From a virus (Duplodnaviria; Heunggongvirae; Uroviricota; Caudoviricetes), in IMG/VR virus record IMGVR_UViG_2718217885_000015: 44,903 nt of DNA. One strand, 5' to 3'. Under the pieces are notes generated by a model that was not told the origin of the DNA, made no database searches, and saw only the letters and a list, made by a program, of their open reading frames with translations. A program made the translations under genes and the position numbers. Numbering within the stretch: position 1 is the stretch's first letter; each line of letters opens with the position of its first letter. This document shows positions 3,501-35,249 of this stretch, in pieces.

Positions 3501-4715
3501 GTCAATCCAGTTCACCTCAACGGCATTATGGCGGTCCTTCAGGGCGCTGAAGCTGTAGCGGAACGGCGCGCCATCATCCGGCATCACCACATTACTGCGG
3601 TTATAGGTCCACACCTTATCTGATGGTCGGTCCTGCACGAACGTCAGCGTCTGCCCGTTCCATACCGGCATACAGCGCATCGCCGAGCAGAAATCACTGA
3701 GCACATCCCACGCCTTGCGCTGTGTGGTCAGGTACGCATTACAGGTGATGCGCGGCTCCGTGCCGCCAAAACCGTCCGGCACCGACTGATCGCAATGCTG
3801 GCCGATGACATACAGCGCCCATTTGTCCACATCCGCCGCACCAAGACGTTTCCCCATGCCGTAGCGCGGATGGGTCAGCATATCCCACAGACACCAGGCC
3901 GGGTTGTTGCTGTATGCCGGCTTAAACGTTCCGTCCCAGATACCGCTGTATTGCCGCGTCTGCGGGTTATAGTTCGACGGCACCTGCAGAATGCGCCCGC
4001 GCAGATGATAATTACGGCTCACCTGCTGGCTGCCGAACTGCTCCGAATCCACCTGCACGCCGACCAGTGCCGTGTTCGGGTAGCACTGTTTCACATCGAT
4101 GATTTCAGTGTATGACGACCAGAGCGTTTTGTTCTGCAGCTGGTCTGTGGTGCTGTCCGGCGTCATCCTGCGCATCCGTATATTGAACGGGCGCGGCGGC
4201 AGGTTACCCACCACCACCGAGGCCAGATACTGCGAGGTGGTTTTGCCCTTAATGGTGATGTCTTTTTCCGTCACCCAGCCACCATTACGCTGGATCTGAA
4301 CCAGCAGGCGGACTTCCGACGGATTCCGGTCCCCCTTTGAGGTGGTTTCCACCAGTGCCTGCACACCGAAGGTAAAGCGCAGACGGTCAATGTTTGCAGA
4401 TGTGATGGTCCGGGTGATCGGCGTGTCGTATTTCACTTCCGTACCCAGCACCGTCTCGGAACCGGAGGATTCAAATCCCTCCGGCGGTGCCTGCTCCTGC
4501 TCACCTGCCCGGAACACGACCGTGACACCGGAGATGTTGGTATTCCCCTCAGTGTCCAGCACCGGCGTACTGTTCAGCAGCACGCTTTTTAATCCATCCA
4601 CCGGACCTTCAATCGGCCCTTCGCTGATGGCATCAATCACACTCAGTAACTGCGTGGACTTCAGGTTGTCCTTCGCTTCGCGCGGGGTATGCCCCTTACT
4701 GCTGCCTTTACCCAT
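588..4715 (-). CDS. J: Host specificity / central tail fibre protein J, with a side-tail-fibre-like C-terminal region
   Basis: 1375 aa; the first ~800 residues align with lambda J as I recall it (e.g. [21 protein letters not shown]); the C-terminal ~550 aa carry a conserved tail-fibre motif (TEKGLVQL...AATPKAVK...[13 protein letters not shown]) and a Gly/Tyr-rich distal region instead of the lambda J C-terminus. Confidence 0.9.
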
Positions 4716-22291: not shown

Positions 22292-22572
22292 TCGGTTTAT
22301 GCTCACCCCAGCATCCCCGACGAAGACAACATCATCCAGCCCAGGGAAAGAAAAAGAGCAACCAGCATCAGTGAAAATGAAATGCCGACAATTACACAGA
22401 GGATCTTCGCCAGCGTTATGAGTTTGTCTGATATCATTGGTCACCACTCCATCAATCCGTCTTTGTGATTTTTCCTTTGCCTGTATCAGCCAGGACAAAA
22501 TCAATCAGCAGATTCGCTTCGTTTATCAACGTGCGAATTTTTGATACATGTGCAGCTTTAACCGACTTCCAC

Positions 22573-23022
22573 TCACTCAGCCCGGTACCAAACAAACTGG
22601 CGATGTTTTTTATCCCGTTTCATGTCAGCGCATACCTGATTGAGTTCTTCCATCACGCTCATTCGACGGGGATTAACGACAAAACCCTTCGTCCAGTATT
22701 CATAGAGAACATCGTCGCACTCTTCCTGATACTGAATGACCCTGTCGCGGATTTCAGGTTTAACTTTGTTGGGATTGATGGTTTGTAACCAGCCCGCAAG
22801 TTTTCGAAGTGGCAGGGATACCATATTGCGTCGTTTCCCATCCTCAGCAACCATAATGATTTCCGTTATAGTTGACGCAAAACGCTGTCTTAACTTAGCC
22901 AACTGTGATTGCCAGGCTAGCCCCATCCCCGCAACAACAGGCTTCATGGGAACGTACGGCTCGCCATTATGGTTAACCACATAAAGAGAGTTGCCGTGAA
23001 ACGGCACGGTCATCATATTCAT
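22573..23022 (-). CDS. Phage antirepressor-like protein (Ant/KilA-N-like) between endolysin and Rz
   Basis: 149-aa ORF; I recall a similar antirepressor-like gene between R and Rz in some E. coli lambdoid prophages; assignment by position and weak motif resemblance only. Confidence 0.45.
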   Translation of the reverse strand: MNMMTVPFHGNSLYVVNHNGEPYVPMKPVVAGMGLAWQSQLAKLRQRFASTITEIIMVAEDGKRRNMVSLPLRKLAGWLQTINPNKVKPEIRDRVIQYQEECDDVLYEYWTKGFVVNPRRMSVMEELNQVCADMKRDKKHRQFVWYRAE

Positions 23023-23294
23023 CGGTTATTTCCTTTTAGTGATGAACCTTGTCTCACAGGAATCCGGCCCACAGAAAAGCACCGATAGCCAAACCGGTAT
23101 CCTCAAGGGTCATCCTGAAAGGTTCTGTGTTGTGAGATGCGCGTGAGATGCGCAGAAAATGACAAAGGCACCATTGCGGTGCCTCAGCGTGAAACAACAG
23201 TTTTGACTTTACTCACTTACATTTCGCCAGTTCGCAGGATTTCGCGTTATCCGCCCACGTTGGCCAACGTCATTTTTCAGCAAAAATATTCTGC

Positions 23295-24925: not shown

Positions 24926-25141
24926 CTACTCTCCCCGCGCCGCCTTACGCCGGTCTTCTTTAATTTTGAAATACAGGTTCGTCAGATACGTCAGCAGACC
25001 AAACAGCAGACTCCCCAGCACGCCTATTGCCACCCACTGGGACGGAGAGACTTTGTCCAGCAGCTGCAGTAACCAGTATCCCGTCCCCACCGCTGACGTG
25101 GTGTATGACACACCTGTTGTGATTTTTTCCATCTGGTACAT
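24926..25141 (-). CDS. S: Class II holin / pinholin (phage 21 S-like) with dual-start motif
   Basis: [71 protein letters not shown] resembles recalled S21; Met1 and Met4 form the antiholin/holin dual start; pairs with the SAR endolysin. Confidence 0.85.
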
Positions 25142-25443
25142 ACCCCGTCTCCCGTTATCCGGAAGCTGACAACAATAAAAAAGCCACCCGTTAATTACTG
25201 ATGGCTCTGATGCATAAACGTCATCATTCCTGACCGTTATGATTGACAATGGTTATCATTTTTATATAAAAATACTCCCGATATGTGTTACATATCATTT
25301 CTCCACGGGGAATATCCCCACGCCAGCGTCAGACTCGTTTTCCCGTTCTCTTCTGTGCTGGCGTTTTTTTATTATGATGTCGGTGCATTTATTTCCAGCA
25401 CCAGGCTTTCAATCTCAACACCATACGCGGAATTTTTGGGCGT

Positions 25444-25469
25444 AAAAAATCCCCTCCGGTGAGGGGATT
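25444..25469 (-). terminator. Rho-independent terminator upstream of the holin (candidate tR')
   Basis: Stem AATCCCCTC/GAGGGGATT with a 4-nt loop; the A-run on the plus strand gives a U-run on the minus strand. Confidence 0.5.
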
Positions 25470-25701
25470 TGCTTATGTAAACATTTACACTGCTTACCTG
25501 CATGGTGCCGGGTGCCTCCCGGTGAATTCAGTATCAGCACCTGAATCCGCAATTATCCCATATACCTACTTGCTGATTGCCCCTCCGCACAGGGGGATTC
25601 ACCATGCGAAATTTTTTTAACAAATGCTCAGTCTGACAGGCAACTGTCAACTGACTGAATTGTGAGACAATTAAAATTTTCGGGGCGTAACTGATACCCG
25701 G

Positions 25702-25866
25702 TTAACTACCTGGCATGTCCTTTTTCACCAAAGGAAAAAGCACCACCACAATACCGACCACCAGCACTCCATCCGCCAGCACCGACATGATCCTGCTGGT
25801 GAAATCCACCATCACCACCAGAAACAGCAGGAGTGCCACAGCGGCCAGACGCAGTTTTACCGTCAC
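25702..25866 (-). CDS. Small hydrophobic protein (54 codons) coupled to the TerB-like gene
   Basis: GTG start overlaps the TerB-like TGA stop (CTGTGACGG); translation VTVKLRLAAVALLLFLVVMVDFTSRIMSVLADGVLVVGIVVVLFPLVKKDMPGS shows two hydrophobic segments; below the ORF-track size cut-off. Confidence 0.4.
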   Translation of the reverse strand: MTVKLRLAAVALLLFLVVMVDFTSRIMSVLADGVLVVGIVVVLFPLVKKDMPGS

Positions 25867-26294
25867 AGGTGGTTCTCCAGTCGCAGGCCAAGAACACCAG
25901 CAATCTCTTCCAGAACCTTACGCTCTTCCGGCTCAATTTCACCATCTGCTTCAGCAATGGCCACCGCCACATCCAGCACATCTTCCGCTTCACGCGTATC
26001 GTGTTTCACATCTTCAATTTCACGCAACGCTGCACGACGACCAATTTTAAAATTGGTGTCAAGCTGACCTGTGATCGTGGCACTGATGGCATTAATTTCT
26101 GACGTAAATGCGGACAATGCTGGCTGGTTACGTAATACCTGTTCGATCTTCGCTTTCTCTGAAGTCTCACATTCACCATCTGCATAGGCCACCAGGTAGG
26201 CAGCATTAATAACCGCCTGTGCCAGATCGCGTTTCTCAAACTTTTTAATTTCAGTTGCTGCTCTGCGGGTTTTCTTTTTGAAAATACCAAACAT
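25863..26294 (-). CDS. TerB-like (tellurite-resistance TerB family) protein
   Basis: 143 aa; repeated acidic helices (VINAAYLVAYADGE... and VAVAIAEADGEIEPEERKVLEEIA) typical of the TerB fold. Confidence 0.65.
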   Translation of the reverse strand: MFGIFKKKTRRAATEIKKFEKRDLAQAVINAAYLVAYADGECETSEKAKIEQVLRNQPALSAFTSEINAISATITGQLDTNFKIGRRAALREIEDVKHDTREAEDVLDVAVAIAEADGEIEPEERKVLEEIAGVLGLRLENHL

Positions 26295-26467
26295 CGTGAC
26301 TTTTCCTTTTAGTGGGTGAGCCTGCGCCCGGGGGTGACCAGCCCACAGAGAAAGTCACACTGACCATCCAGTAAGCTCCCCCCTGAAAAGCTCTGTGGTT
26401 TTTGATATGCGCCGGGCGTGGCGCGGATACAAAAAAGGCCCGCAAAAGCGAGCCAGGAAAATAAGTA

Positions 26468-26544
26468 TGGCGCGTTGTACTGGATTCGAACCAGTGACCG
26501 ATTGCTTAGAAGGCAATTGCTCTGTCCGACTGAGCTAACAACGC
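26468..26544 (-). tRNA. argO: tRNA-Arg (anticodon UCU)
   Basis: Folded by hand: acceptor GCGTTGT/ACAACGC, D-arm GCTC/GAGC, anticodon stem ATTGC/GCAAT with loop CTTCTAA, T-arm ACTGG-TTCGAAT-CCAGT, encoded CCA; 77 nt. Confidence 0.85.
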
Positions 26545-26557
26545 ATGATGCAGATAA

Positions 26558-26638
26558 TGGACCGCCATCGAGGACTCGAACCCCGCACCAACAACCCTGT
26601 TATCGTGTCGTCTGCTCTTCCTGATGAGCTAATGGCGG
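26558..26638 (-). tRNA. tRNA-like sequence with canonical acceptor, D- and T-arms but a non-canonical anticodon arm (possible pseudo-tRNA; argN-like position)
   Basis: Acceptor CCGCCAT/ATGGCGG, D-arm GCTC/GAGC, T-arm CGGGG-TTCGAGT-CCTCG and CCA are present, but the 27-nt region between D- and T-arms (GACGACACGATAACAGGGTTGTTGGTG) gave no standard 5-bp stem with 7-nt loop in my manual fold. Confidence 0.5.
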
Positions 26639-26645
26639 TATGTTA

Positions 26646-26721
26646 TGGTGGCCCTTGCTGGATTTGAACCAGCGACCTGGCGATTATGAGTCGCTCGCTC
26701 TCACCACTGAGCTAAAGGGCC
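26646..26721 (-). tRNA. ileZ: tRNA with anticodon CAU (Ile2/lysidine-type or Met; ileZ-like position)
   Basis: Acceptor GGCCCTT/AAGGGCC, anticodon loop CTCATAA, T-arm GCTGG-TTCAAAT-CCAGC, CCA encoded; 76 nt. Confidence 0.85.
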
Positions 26722-26761: not shown

Positions 26762-27820
26762 TCATCCGTTCTGACTGACTAAATCCTGAACTTCCTTGAC
26801 CGTCTGCTCAAAACGCTCAGTCTCCAGCTCAACGCCAATTGCACGACGTCCCAGCGCCATCGCTGCTTTGACCGTCGAACCCGACCCCATGAAAAAATCT
26901 GCAACCAGATCTCCCGGACGACTGCTTGCGCTGATTATCTGCTGCAACATTTCTGCCGGTTTTTCGCACGGATGTTTCCCGGGATAGTACTGCACCGGTT
27001 TATGCATCCACACATCGGTGTACGGCACCTGCACAGTCACACCGAAATACCGCCGCAAATTTTTATATTCTCTCAGCAGTTCCGTATACTGCCGGTTCAG
27101 TTCACTGTATGTGCTGACCAGCTGGTGGTGTGGCTGCTCCAGTTCACCGCGCTGATGTTTTTCTGCTGCAACACGCGCAAACAACGCCTGCAATTTGTTG
27201 TAATCAGCTTCGTTCGGTAACTGCCACTGACTGGTACCAAACCAGTGCGAAGCCATGTTTTTCTTTCCGGTGGCTTCCGCTATCTGTTTTGACGTTATTC
27301 CCAGTTCGGCACGAGCATCCCTGAAATACGATATCAGCGGTGCCATTATGTGCTGTTTGAGTTCCCTTTCTTTTGCCGCATAGCCGTCACTTTTGCCGCG
27401 ATATGGCCCCTGGTAATGTTCAGCAAACAGAACGCGCTCTGTGGCAGGAAAATATGCGCGCAGACTTTCTTTATTACACCCATTCCAACGTCCGGACGGC
27501 TTCGCCCAGATGATATGGTTAAGCACGTTGAAACGTTCACGCATCATGATCTCAATATCAGATGCCAGGCGATGCTCACAGAACAGGTAAAGACTTCCGG
27601 CAGGTTTCAACACCCGCCAGAACTGGGCCAGACAGTGGTCCAGCCACTTAAGATAATCTTCGTCCCCTTTCCACTGATTGTCCCAACCGTTGGGTTTCAC
27701 CTTGAAGTAAGGCGGATCGGTAACAATCAGGTCAATGGAATCATCAGGCAGGGACTGAATAAAATGCAGGCAATCAGCGTTGATTAAATCAATACTGTTT
27801 ATTTTTACAGTATTTTTCAT
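26762..27820 (-). CDS. DNA methyltransferase (N6-adenine/N4-cytosine class; orphan, phage-borne)
   Basis: 352 aa; catalytic DPPY motif (VTDPPYF) near the N-terminus and AdoMet-binding FxGSG (DFFMGSGST) near the C-terminus; no adjacent restriction endonuclease recognised. Confidence 0.85.
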   Translation of the reverse strand: MKNTVKINSIDLINADCLHFIQSLPDDSIDLIVTDPPYFKVKPNGWDNQWKGDEDYLKWLDHCLAQFWRVLKPAGSLYLFCEHRLASDIEIMMRERFNVLNHIIWAKPSGRWNGCNKESLRAYFPATERVLFAEHYQGPYRGKSDGYAAKERELKQHIMAPLISYFRDARAELGITSKQIAEATGKKNMASHWFGTSQWQLPNEADYNKLQALFARVAAEKHQRGELEQPHHQLVSTYSELNRQYTELLREYKNLRRYFGVTVQVPYTDVWMHKPVQYYPGKHPCEKPAEMLQQIISASSRPGDLVADFFMGSGSTVKAAMALGRRAIGVELETERFEQTVKEVQDLVSQNG

Positions 27821-28443: not shown

Positions 28444-28890
28444 ATGAATAAAATGACTGTATTATTACTTAGCGCAACTATCATTTCAGGTTGTACTTCT
28501 TCCGTACCATTGATAAAGAAAACTCAATCAGGAAAACCTGAGGGGGTTTATCAAAATACGACAAAAGATAAAGTCAAAGATGCCCTTGTGAATTACTGCA
28601 ATAGTAGAGGGTTGATAATTTACAACGCGGATAACAGCAGTGTTATATGTGGTAAAGAACTGGAAGGCGGGTCTGCTGTTTTTGGACAAATGTTAATCGG
28701 CAATGCCTATTCAACAACCCCGGTATCAAAAGTCAGATTTACTATCGCTCAAGTTAATAACGATACAAAAGTGTGGGCCGATATGTGGATGGAAACTCAA
28801 ATGGCAATGGGGCAAGTACAACAAATGGCTATAACAGACAACGCAAGCAAAAACACTATCCAACAACGTCTTGATGAATTAAAACCTTAA
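28444..28890 (+). CDS. Lipoprotein of unknown function (moron, opposite strand to the surrounding operon)
   Basis: 148 aa; signal peptide with lipobox LLSATIISG-C; AT-rich; a candidate TTGATT-17-ATAATT promoter lies upstream. Confidence 0.7.
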   Translation: MNKMTVLLLSATIISGCTSSVPLIKKTQSGKPEGVYQNTTKDKVKDALVNYCNSRGLIIYNADNSSVICGKELEGGSAVFGQMLIGNAYSTTPVSKVRFTIAQVNNDTKVWADMWMETQMAMGQVQQMAITDNASKNTIQQRLDELKP

Positions 28891-28975: not shown

Positions 28976-29356
28976 CTAACGATCCATCTCTAGCTCAATT
29001 TCTAACATCATTAACATGCCATCAACTACACCTTCAGCCTTTTGCAATAAACGCCCAACCCAGCAATCAGAACGCCCATGTTTACGGGCAAGCGCCATAA
29101 ACGTCATACCACCTACATAATAATCCACTAATAAATCGTGCAAATCGCTGTTGTTCTTTTTCAGGCGAGCCATGCACCCACAAATGATCATCGCGTCATC
29201 GTCACAACATTGCGGGCGGGATTTTACTTTTGAAGGGATTAGTCCTTTAAATCCTGCAGCAATAGACGACCAGGTGACATCCTCGTGATTATTTGCCACC
29301 CATGCCCCCCAACGTTCAAGAACCATTTGAATATCACGCATCAACTTTCTCCACAA
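28976..29356 (-). CDS. Q: Late gene antiterminator Q (phage 21/82 or QuuD type)
   Basis: Resembles recalled DLP12 QuuD ([14 protein letters not shown]..., Cys cluster [16 protein letters not shown]); likely start at Met6 (29341). Confidence 0.8.
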
Positions 29357-34649: not shown

Positions 34650-35249
34650 GGCAGCCTCCGTATGCAATGGATAACTTCCACCACCGGAAACGCCAATTTC
34701 GCTGGTGGTGAACTGAGCAGGGTTGGCGTAACCGGCGCATACGGAAACCGGCGCACCTTTCGGTGCCCCCACCCAGCCCACCATAATTTGGGTATAGCTG
34801 AGTTGTAGCAACAAAAAAGACGCTAACGCGCCAATTGTCGCCGTATGCAATTCCAGGACGCCAATCCCGGCACCCGCTTTATAAGGTGCCTGAACAGTGT
34901 AACGTCCCGGAATGGCAGAATCAATGTGCTGGTGGTCCTTCACACTCAACAAAATCACGCCTGAATTTCCACAAAGGGCTAAAGCACTCATGCGGGTAGT
35001 CTTTGCGAAGATAGATAACGCGCTGTGTTTCTGGCTCCCAACGAATAACATGAACATAAAGTCCTCTTCCGTCACGAAACCAGCGGTTAAGTTCCTGCAC
35101 AACTCGCCACCCACAGTCAGGTAAAGTTCTCTGTGGTTACTTACAGCCAGGAGATTTGGTAATCTGCATTCATGCCGTAACAACAGGTGTTCAGCGACCC
35201 TGACCACCAGCTGTTGCGACAAACGGTTATTTGCCGTTAAACTGTTCAT
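34650..35249 (-). CDS. Uncertain: upstream in-frame part of the 382-aa ORF (separate gene, N-terminal domain of a longer Rha protein, or non-coding)
   Basis: In-frame ORF continuing upstream of the Rha start; its ATG at 35249 overlaps the stop of the cII-like gene, which suggests coupling, but the sequence has no recognisable domain. Confidence 0.25.

Follow-up and report, generated by a model that had tools for sequence, protein, structure and literature searches.

The tciA-tciB cassette and its closest described relatives

Phages P1 and P7 carry the gene runs tciA-tciB-tciC and terB-upf69.4-upf69.6, respectively, in each of which a TerB gene is followed by a gene for a 54-amino acid (aa) DUF3927 protein with an overlapping start. 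We analyzed a pair of the same kind, together with a putative structured leader RNA ahead of it, on the minus strand of a 44,903-nucleotide stretch of DNA from a virus of the class Caudoviricetes (IMG/VR record IMGVR_UViG_2718217885_000015), which is referred to in full as the window. As in P1 and P7, the pair lies beside phage tRNA genes and has the character of nonessential accessory cargo. The window differs from P1 in that a 35-aa hydrophobic gene, tciC, follows tciB in the latter, whereas a gene for an STnc100-family small RNA (sRNA) takes that place here, and in that the P1 genes belong to the C1-controlled ban operon whereas those of the window lie in a predicted Q-dependent late operon. 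The structured leader is absent from both P1 and P7. The pair is an already known, annotated and common phage cassette, tciA-tciB, first named in P1, where the names were given by homology.

Three further systems offer partial parallels. Published work reports inner-membrane association of TerB as well as a TerC-TerB complex. The terZABCDE operon shares with the cassette the TerB fold and the cooperation, at the inner membrane, of a soluble TerB with a partner that is an integral membrane protein. In the window, however, that partner would be a 54-aa hairpin protein rather than the multi-pass TerC, and the setting is a phage late operon with no terZ, terA, terC, terD or terE among the neighboring features (tRNAs, methylase, sRNA and holin). 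The defense proteins SngA of Shango, BnzA of Bunzi and DinB of Dionysus also combine a TerB domain with membrane-associated components; in contrast, the window pair comes without helicase, ATPase, MAEBL or pore-forming partners, and the pair is also found in virulent phages. Finally, the Shiga toxin (stx) moron occupies the identical slot, after the tRNA genes ileZ-argN-argO and before STnc100 and the lysis genes, with the same Q-dependent late transcription. It differs in carrying toxin cargo rather than tciAB, and the stx2 genes of the Stx2 phage that we compared have no copy of the leader.

To these descriptions our analysis adds the tight co-conservation of the pair in temperate and lytic phages, its standing as an alternative in the stx slot, the presence of STnc100 after the pair and a covarying, predicted Shine-Dalgarno (SD)-sequestering leader before it. 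The pair itself adds little, and we consider the leader to be the part worth pursuing.

Identity of the pair and its overlapping junction

The two genes and their junction are placed as follows.

25863-26294, minus strand: tciA, encoding a TerB-family protein predicted to be cytoplasmic; N-terminus basic-hydrophobic (MFGIFKKK), acidic ADGE...E motif present twice
25702-25866, minus strand: tciB, encoding a two-segment hydrophobic DUF3927 protein, GTG start
25863-25878, minus strand: coupling junction, with a GGAG SD at 25875-25878, an 8-nt spacer and the GTG at 25864-25866 on the tciA TGA at 25863-25865

The tciA gene encodes 143 aa from an ATG preceded by AAAGGA, and its product has neither a signal peptide nor a membrane segment. 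It ends in CAC CTG TGA, which in the -1 frame reads GTG ACG, so that stop and start share a 4-nt GTGA overlap. The 54 codons of tciB encode MTVKLRLAAVALLLFLVVMVDFTSRIMSVLADGVLVVGIVVVLFPLVKKDMPGS, in which two hydrophobic segments (residues ~7-20 and ~30-46 on the Kyte-Doolittle scale) are joined by a short DFTSR connector and flanked by the basic residues K4/R6 and K48/K49. The initial annotation, made from the sequence alone, had described a TerB-like protein followed by a 54-codon open reading frame (ORF) whose GTG overlaps the TerB stop and which encodes two hydrophobic segments, and both the sequence and the hydropathy plot confirm that description.

Database comparisons agree on both identities. 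TciA matches Pfam TerB PF05099 over residues 26-138 (E 1.8e-16, 60.9 bits against a cut-off of 24.4) and PHROG 632 ('tellurite resistance'; E 1.7e-69), and phmmer aligned residues 14-137, almost the whole length, with the solved Klebsiella TerB structure 2JXU (E 9e-8), in support of the TerB membership first proposed for it. Its acidic motifs, AYADGECETSE and AEADGEIEPEE, fall one per half-domain and probably represent the proposed metal-binding motifs of TerB; D39, G40, E46, D117 and E124 are unchanged across eight phage TciA homologues. TciB matches Pfam DUF3927 PF13064 (E 3.2e-16, 59.5 bits against a cut-off of 25) and PHROG 1470 ('TciB-like inhibition of cell division or resistance to colicin'; E 1.4e-24). 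NCBIfam gave only sub-threshold DjlA and YmfL matches.

Contrary to the initial annotation, the small ORF is not unannotated. In the chromosome of Escherichia coli strain 09-00049, which is 100% identical to the window over the stretch of the pair and from which we read the RefSeq annotation, the genes are entered as WP_001299895.1 ('tellurite resistance TerB family protein', TciA) and WP_000216624.1 ('DUF3927 family protein', TciB). GenBank records name them tciA/tciB in phages JLK-2012 and P1 and terB/upf69.4 in P7; TciA is 41% identical to its P1 homologue and 52% identical to that of P7. The exact 54-aa TciB occurs on about 1000 public contigs.

Conservation of the pair in temperate and lytic phages

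The initial annotation had staked its proposal on conservation of the pair in related elements, and this was found. When hidden Markov models of TciA and TciB were run against the six-frame ORFs of 105 sources, TciB was also present in 100 of the 102 that carry TciA, the exceptions being the distant Pseudomonas phage AF and Vibrio phage K481. Seeding with TciB instead, at one genome per species (Pseudescherichia, Rosenbergiella, Enterobacter, Buttiauxella and Pantoea among them), placed TciA directly upstream in 12 of 14 loci; the remaining two are deletion remnants adjoining the methylase. The junction was scored at 99 loci, across which an SD-like GGA(G/A/T) lies within the last TciA codons.

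4-nt (G/T)TGA overlap: 91 of 99 loci
1-nt T(G/A)ATG overlap: 6 of 99 loci
8-nt overlap: 1 of 99 loci
3-nt gap (+3): 1 of 99 loci, in jumbo phage ChrisDB

This conservation bears on whether the 54-codon ORF could have arisen by chance within the 3' part of the TerB gene and make no protein. In favor of chance are its shortness, its GTG start and its hydrophobic composition of low complexity, and a tblastn search against phage records with default filtering returned no match owing to the low-complexity filter. However, curated Pfam and PHROG models match it, and 36 distinct homologues keep its frame, length and junction along with the core LLFLVV-(V/I)DFT(S/G)-MS(V/I)LADG-WP-K. The ratio of nonsynonymous to synonymous substitution rates (dN/dS) lies between 0.04 and 0.36 (Nei-Gojobori; 13 pairwise comparisons with calculable dS), indicating purifying selection, and the ORF is kept beside TerB in phages that share no other DNA. 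We give the chance-ORF explanation hardly any weight and regard it as effectively refuted; the family matches, the conserved junction and the dN/dS values support a real, coupled gene for a small membrane protein, as first proposed.

TciA-like proteins occur in 131 phage records. The tciA-tciB pair is carried by temperate lambdoid phages and P1/P7, by Klebsiella phage 1 LV-2017, by lytic Machinavirus jumbo phages of Erwinia and Salmonella, by the jumbo phage ChrisDB, by phage Fostie, by the N4-like phages Pollock and As2, by Pantoea phage LIET2 and by Pseudomonas phage ZY21. Subtypes of the two proteins have been shuffled, and the pair still stays together: in P7 the TciA is window-like and the TciB P1-like, and in Fostie it is the other way round. 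The DUF3927 family is small and forms 98 clusters at 50% identity among 1.84 billion representatives, nearly all of them 50-65 aa long; three long matches considered as fusions were rejected as chimeric or frameshift products. A TciA-seeded scan of IMG/VR retrieved only relatives 96-100% identical to the query, which are informative for counts and not for diversity.

A tRNA gene lies at most 1 kb upstream in 69 of 101 tciA loci, and P1, JLK-2012, the jumbo phages and the window all belong to this group. The association is frequent, but we rejected the idea that it is obligatory, since most non-E. coli genome loci have no upstream tRNA. Public records under-annotate the TciB homologue in places: it is called too short in ZY21 (986-1174 of the locus) and is left unannotated in Klebsiella phage 1 LV-2017 (1623-1778 of the locus). 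The N4-like phage Pollock also has a group I intron (2259-2611 of the locus; Rfam, 101 bits), located some 450 nt downstream of tciAB.

Other membrane partners beside phage TerB

Phage TerB genes outside the TciB range can also have a membrane protein next to them. Pseudomonas phage AF has an unannotated 73-aa ORF with a single transmembrane segment, non-homologous to TciB, whose GTG overlaps the TerB stop (2432-2653 of the locus), and Ebordelon has a homologue of that ORF, a 67-aa 'membrane protein' starting 4 nt after the TerB stop (1643-1846 of the locus). The two share the motif CxxYGxQTERETxY. From their sequences and positions, these ORFs are a second family of small membrane partners beside phage TerB, likewise predicted to be coupled. 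In Vibrio phage vB_VpaP-MS02, a gene for a TerC/Alx-family membrane protein (78-1097 of the locus) lies directly upstream of TerB. As far as gene order can tell, phage TerB recurrently comes with a membrane partner.

A candidate two-state leader RNA ahead of tciA

Several phage mRNAs are known to have structured leaders. The lambda cIII mRNA (Rfam Lambda_thermo) forms alternative SD-occluding and SD-exposing structures, and the lambda N and T7 mRNA leaders are processed by RNase III. The region ahead of tciA resembles them in its predicted SD-occluding or -exposing folds and in an irregular 20-30-bp hairpin just upstream of the start; unlike them, it is portable and precedes many unrelated cargo genes, and it shares no sequence or model similarity with any of the three. 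Its parts in the window are listed here.

26292-26426, minus strand: leader copy 1 (tciA); 140.9 bits, E 2.6e-41 with our model R1
26409-26424, minus strand: helix P1 hairpin
26391-26398, minus strand: P2 5' strand
26385-26390, minus strand: anti-SD CUUUUC
26374-26382, minus strand: P4 5' strand
26353-26365, minus strand: P3
26343-26350, minus strand: P2 3' strand
26314-26322, minus strand: P4 3' strand
26304-26309, minus strand: SD
26292-26294, minus strand: tciA ATG, end of the leader

From 5' to 3', the leader consists of the P1 hairpin, with a loop conserved as WCGCYC, the P2 5' strand (CCACAGAG), CUUUC, the P4 5' strand (GGGGUGAGCC), the X 5' strand, P3, the P2 3' strand (CUCUGUGG), the X 3' strand, the P4 3' strand (GGCUCACCC), the SD, about 7 nt and the ATG. 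The invariant CUUUC is complementary to the SD (AAAGG). In the contexts compared, the conserved block upstream of tciA measures about 125-135 nt and extends from just past a terminator or tRNA to the ATG. It was found in E. coli prophages, Fostie, Klebsiella phages, Pantoea, Buttiauxella and Enterobacter genomes and lytic jumbo phages, and was absent from the DNA compared upstream of tciA in P1/P7 and in the N4-like, Pseudomonas and Vibrio phages. Just upstream of tciA, P1 and P7 have a hairpin, CACCGGGA(A/G)GCAC(C/U)CGGCACC, that is also a conserved hairpin inside STnc100 (~2440-2470 of the P1 locus and ~1940-1970 of the P7 locus).

The window holds a second copy of the leader ahead of a different gene.

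23020-23155, minus strand: leader copy 2, divergent; full-length match to R1 (50.1 bits, E 7e-14)

A terminator-like hairpin precedes this copy, which ends with the ATG of a P22_AR_N antirepressor pseudogene (22452-23022; Pfam E 2e-45) that RefSeq calls frameshifted. The copy shows compensatory changes in P2 (CACAGAA/UUCUGUG) and P4. Other copies precede genes for a TAXI-family solute-binding protein, ANT/KilAC, KilA-N and three unknown proteins. We tallied the downstream gene for the 207 true pattern hits in the phage loci examined.

TciA: 198 of 207 hits
TAXI gene: 6 of 207 hits
truncated tciA: 2 of 207 hits
contig end: 1 of 207 hits

Because the downstream genes are functionally unrelated (TerB, TAXI solute-binding protein, P22_AR_N, ANT, KilA-N and the unknowns), a metabolite of one pathway is disfavored as the ligand. 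Among 5426 complete E. coli genomes, 906 (about 17%) carry the leader, at a median of three places per genome. RefSeq annotates nothing at the leader positions. Rfam 15 gave no match to the leader at E of at most 0.1 in a 4.7-kb search or at most 10 in a 191-nt search, the region's only weak matches being to the upstream terminator, and in the literature, which we covered in part, the element seems undescribed. The first 100 loci of a metagenome scan contained seven model-confirmed copies, all of already known types, and otherwise mostly chance matches. The G run at the start of P4 (~26376-26382) varies between near-identical prophages from GGG, GGGG and GGGGGG to as many as 11 G, including an IMG/VR locus and phage Evi; it may be slippage-prone, and its length would alter hairpin stability.

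Minimum free energy (MFE) folding of the segment from CUUUC to the SD gave the same long irregular hairpin, with CUUU paired to the AAAG of the SD, in 14 of 17 sequence types, and whole-leader z-scores for three types were -3.1, -3.9 and -2.8. Covariation was measured on two alignments, A6 with 29 sequences and A7 with 35 including divergent copies. The leader alignment is partly model-fitted; A7 was fitted to helices P1, P2 and P3 only, so its hairpin columns are unbiased towards pairing.

Cells paired: A6 89.4%, A7 88.4%
Cells paired, partner slid: A6 42-50%, A7 35-51%
Covariation score: A6 0.225, A7 0.253
Covariation score in shuffles: A6 0.151 (0 of 500 reach the observed score), A7 0.139 (0 of 500)
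Covariation score, partner slid: A6 0.07-0.10, A7 0.05-0.10
Pairs changed on both sides: A6 11 of 37, A7 20 of 33 against 12.3 +/- 2.1 in shuffles (0 of 500)

In A7, double changes affect all five pairs of P1, five of eight in P2, five of nine in P4 and five of six in X. We also compared cognate with non-cognate duplexes over 11 sequence classes with 50,000 permutations.

P2 duplex (5' flank with apical region): cognate -10.8, non-cognate -7.2 kcal/mol; 0 of 50,000, p < 2e-5
Hairpin arms duplex: cognate -24.2, non-cognate -18.2 kcal/mol; 0 of 50,000, p < 2e-5

These data comprise a covarying conserved structure that includes the SD and an alternative conserved pairing. P2 crosses the hairpin, its 5' strand abutting the base of the ~28-bp stem and its 3' strand lying in the apical loop. 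With the P2 5' strand at the base of a ~28-bp helix, a pseudoknot of P2 and the full hairpin formed simultaneously was deemed unlikely on geometry, and P2 and the hairpin would instead be alternative folds in which the SD is free or sequestered, respectively.

The same block might instead serve at the DNA level, as a recombination joint or protein-binding site conserved through cargo exchange, and not as a regulatory RNA. A cargo gene always begins where the block ends, a terminator or tRNA always comes right before it, and its near-identity among many E. coli prophages means that much of the conservation there is recent descent. Against a DNA boundary stand compensatory changes that keep four helices paired over about 11 sequence classes, the complementarity of CUUUC and SD and a fixed distance to the ATG whatever the downstream gene, and the block is also found in lytic jumbo phages without obvious recombination with lambdoid prophages. 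G-U pairs, moreover, are frequent (10 at one P3 pair, for example, and 6-9 at P4 and anti-SD pairs) and would be A-C mismatches on the other strand. Because of these G-U pairs and of 1-2-nt indels between close relatives, we take the element to act at the RNA level, as a non-coding element of the minus strand, and consider a DNA-level boundary improbable.

The reading of the leader that we put forward, tentatively and at slightly less than an even chance, is that both window copies are members of a hitherto undescribed family of phage mRNA leaders, which are portable, have two exclusive, independently covarying folds and act as a general translational gate for late-operon cargo. In the first fold, a 25-30-bp irregular hairpin would place the invariant CUUUC on the SD; in the second, P2 would form between the 5' flank and the apical loop of the hairpin. 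Such a gate might respond to folding kinetics or temperature, or it might depend on RNase III or another factor. If this is true, Shiga toxin-producing and enteropathogenic E. coli prophages contain an unannotated, multi-copy structured RNA that controls the translation of diverse cargo, and the leader would offer a way to study the expression of horizontally inserted genes within long, antiterminated late transcripts.

The cassette occupies the stx slot

The surroundings of the cassette on the minus strand are as follows.

28976-29341, minus strand: Q antiterminator (RefSeq)
28378-28351, minus strand: promoter-like site downstream of Q
28314-28302, minus strand: terminator-like site downstream of Q
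26762-27820, minus strand: DNA methyltransferase, upstream of the tRNAs in the late region
26646-26721, minus strand: tRNA Ile2/Met(CAT)
26558-26638, minus strand: degenerate 'tRNA-OTHER'
26468-26544, minus strand: tRNA-Arg(UCU)
26437-26454, minus strand: intrinsic-terminator-like hairpin GGCUCGC-UUUU-GCGGGCC with a U run, between tRNA-Arg and the leader
25438-25636, minus strand: STnc100-family sRNA gene (Rfam RF02076, 148.7 bits against a gathering score of 47; full length, model positions 1-206)
24926-25141, minus strand: class II holin, the first lysis gene (RefSeq WP_000284517.1)

The promoter-like and terminator-like sites downstream of Q would correspond to pR' and tR'; a small ORF lies between them and the methyltransferase, and a lysozyme gene comes after the holin. 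The tRNA cluster is the ileZ-argN-argO trio of Stx phages, and the order on the minus strand is thus Q, methylase, ileZ-argN-argO, terminator, leader, tciA, tciB, STnc100 and holin. This agrees with the position first given for the pair, between the tRNA cluster (26468-26721) and the holin and in the late region; the pair lies downstream of Q. Terminator-like hairpins stand on both sides of the cassette, since the 3' hairpin and U run of STnc100 (~25447-25470) form a terminator between tciB and the holin. A crude scan of 26295-26436 on the minus strand found no sigma-70-like promoter (at least 9 of 12 matches). After tciB, no tciC-like ORF was found; the sole downstream minus-strand ORF (25534-25650) has 38 aa, is non-hydrophobic and lies within STnc100. 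The 199-nt STnc100 gene between the small ORF and the holin had gone unmentioned in the initial annotation.

In an Stx2a phage, the same tRNA trio leads to stx2AB and then to sequence homologous to 25579-25673 of the window, i.e., to STnc100. Because the trio precedes both cargoes and STnc100 follows both, tciAB and stx2AB are, on this comparison, alternative cargo of one slot. STnc100 follows stx2B in one Stx2 phage; after tciB it recurs in five other loci, with Escherichia, Enterobacter and Klebsiella elements among the carriers. Its location downstream of stx2B has been reported previously (PMC12370729), and a 2026 preprint lists TerB among the genes conserved near holin-adjacent Pas sRNAs. 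Phage PPyecE_EH1910 has a toxin-antitoxin pair in place of the tRNA cluster upstream of tciA, and in the same phage a gene for the AgvB anti-sRNA (96.5 bits; 3882-3943, plus strand of the locus) abuts STnc100 on the opposite strand.

What the cassette may do

The interpretation that we favor, with moderate confidence, is that tciA-tciB is an accessory cassette whose coupled products condition or protect the energized inner membrane during lytic growth, with the two-state leader gating tciA. Translational coupling would make TciA and TciB together. By the positive-inside rule, TciB would be a hairpin anchor with both termini in the cytoplasm (N-in/C-in), and it would hold TciA, an amphitropic protein with a TerB fold, or act as its partner on the cytoplasmic side of the inner membrane. 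Because terminator-like hairpins flank the pair and no sigma-70 promoter precedes it, expression would come mainly from the Q-antiterminated late transcript. Translation of tciA would then be gated by the leader, which would switch between the SD-sequestering long hairpin and the P2 helix that frees the SD. The job of TciAB would be to condition or protect the energized inner membrane of the infected cell against, for instance, pore-formers, superinfection or premature holin triggering. Because strictly lytic phages carry the cassette, a role in lytic growth seems most likely and tellurite resistance of the lysogen less so. In the P1vir transcriptome, the tci genes are transcribed in lytic growth and are mis-regulated without Hfq.

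Several points weigh against this interpretation. P1 CRISPR interference scores tciA, tciB and tciC as nonessential. For the putative contact between TciA and TciB, no natural TerB-DUF3927 fusion was found among the 98 family representatives, and no adjacent membrane partner was seen in three distant TerB phages (K481, PMBT3 and Cygsa01). The N-in/C-in topology of TciB is predicted from charge distribution only, and late-only expression is deduced from a simple promoter scan, so that the genes may also be expressed in the lysogen. As for the leader, its covariation comes from a small number of related lineages (about 11 classes). The window's own tciA copy differs from its closest relative, the EH1910 type, by three substitutions, all in the 5' arm of the hairpin (26374-26390 and 26360-26371): the anti-SD has a C-to-U change, P4 a U-to-G change and X a G-to-U change. 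Its MFE structure no longer pairs the SD and is no more stable than shuffles (z -0.68). This copy may be a weakened, de-repressed or decaying allele.

The initial annotation had suggested a membrane-stress or defense-related module, and the pair might accordingly be read as a prophage anti-phage defense or superinfection exclusion system that guards the lysogen. TerB would then be the sensor in a kind of membrane surveillance, and TciB would serve it in the membrane as partner or effector. TerB domains do occur with membrane proteins in the validated systems Shango, Bunzi and Dionysus, for which 'membrane surveillance' has been proposed; the ter operon has been linked to phage and colicin resistance; and a cargo slot bracketed by terminators is moron-like. 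However, PADLOC-DB v2 has no match for TciB and, for TciA, at best a local match of 35 residues to PDC-S48 (E 0.0028), and the pair has no helicase, ATPase or pore-forming partner. The upstream scan found no sigma-70-like promoter, and strictly lytic jumbo and N4-like phages carry the same pair. The P1 copy, moreover, is expected to be silent in lysogens because it lies in the C1-repressed ban operon. We consider a defense role unlikely: it is a plausible reading that the present results leave unsupported. The initial interpretation as a whole is partly supported: it stands for the TerB assignment, the coupling, the co-conservation and the late position, is wrong on the unannotated status and is unsupported on the membrane-stress or defense role.

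Lysogenic conversion for tolerance of tellurite, metals (Mn/Zn) or colicin, with the pair as a minimal stand-in for the ter operon, would fit the TerB homology, the pairing of TerB with TerC in a Vibrio phage and the reported response of ter genes to Zn and Mn. Nevertheless, TerB alone has been deemed insufficient for tellurite resistance (an argument of the PMBT3 authors), no further ter gene lies nearby, metal resistance offers no obvious gain to lytic phages and no promoter for expression in the lysogen was found; we regard conversion as quite improbable. Mentions of TerB in the O157 transcriptome literature were set aside, as they concern the chromosomal ter operon and not the prophage gene.

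Returning to a role in the inner membrane, the points worth recording are the cassette as an alternative occupant of the Shiga toxin slot, its carriage by lytic as well as temperate phages and the recurrence of a coupled small membrane partner of phage TerB. Because these three points come together, a functional focus on inner-membrane physiology during lytic growth is warranted.

Other features of the window

An ORF on the opposite strand is inserted between Q and the putative late promoter and terminator.

28444-28890, plus strand: lipoprotein-like ORF, 148 aa, signal LLSATIISGC

Nothing obvious reads this plus-strand ORF antisense. Farther upstream on the minus strand, two adjoining RNA matches together resemble the P1/P7-type C4/ant immunity module, here in a lambdoid prophage.

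34701-34788, minus strand: C4 antisense RNA (Rfam, 80.7 bits)
34813-34889, minus strand: isrK (61.2 bits)

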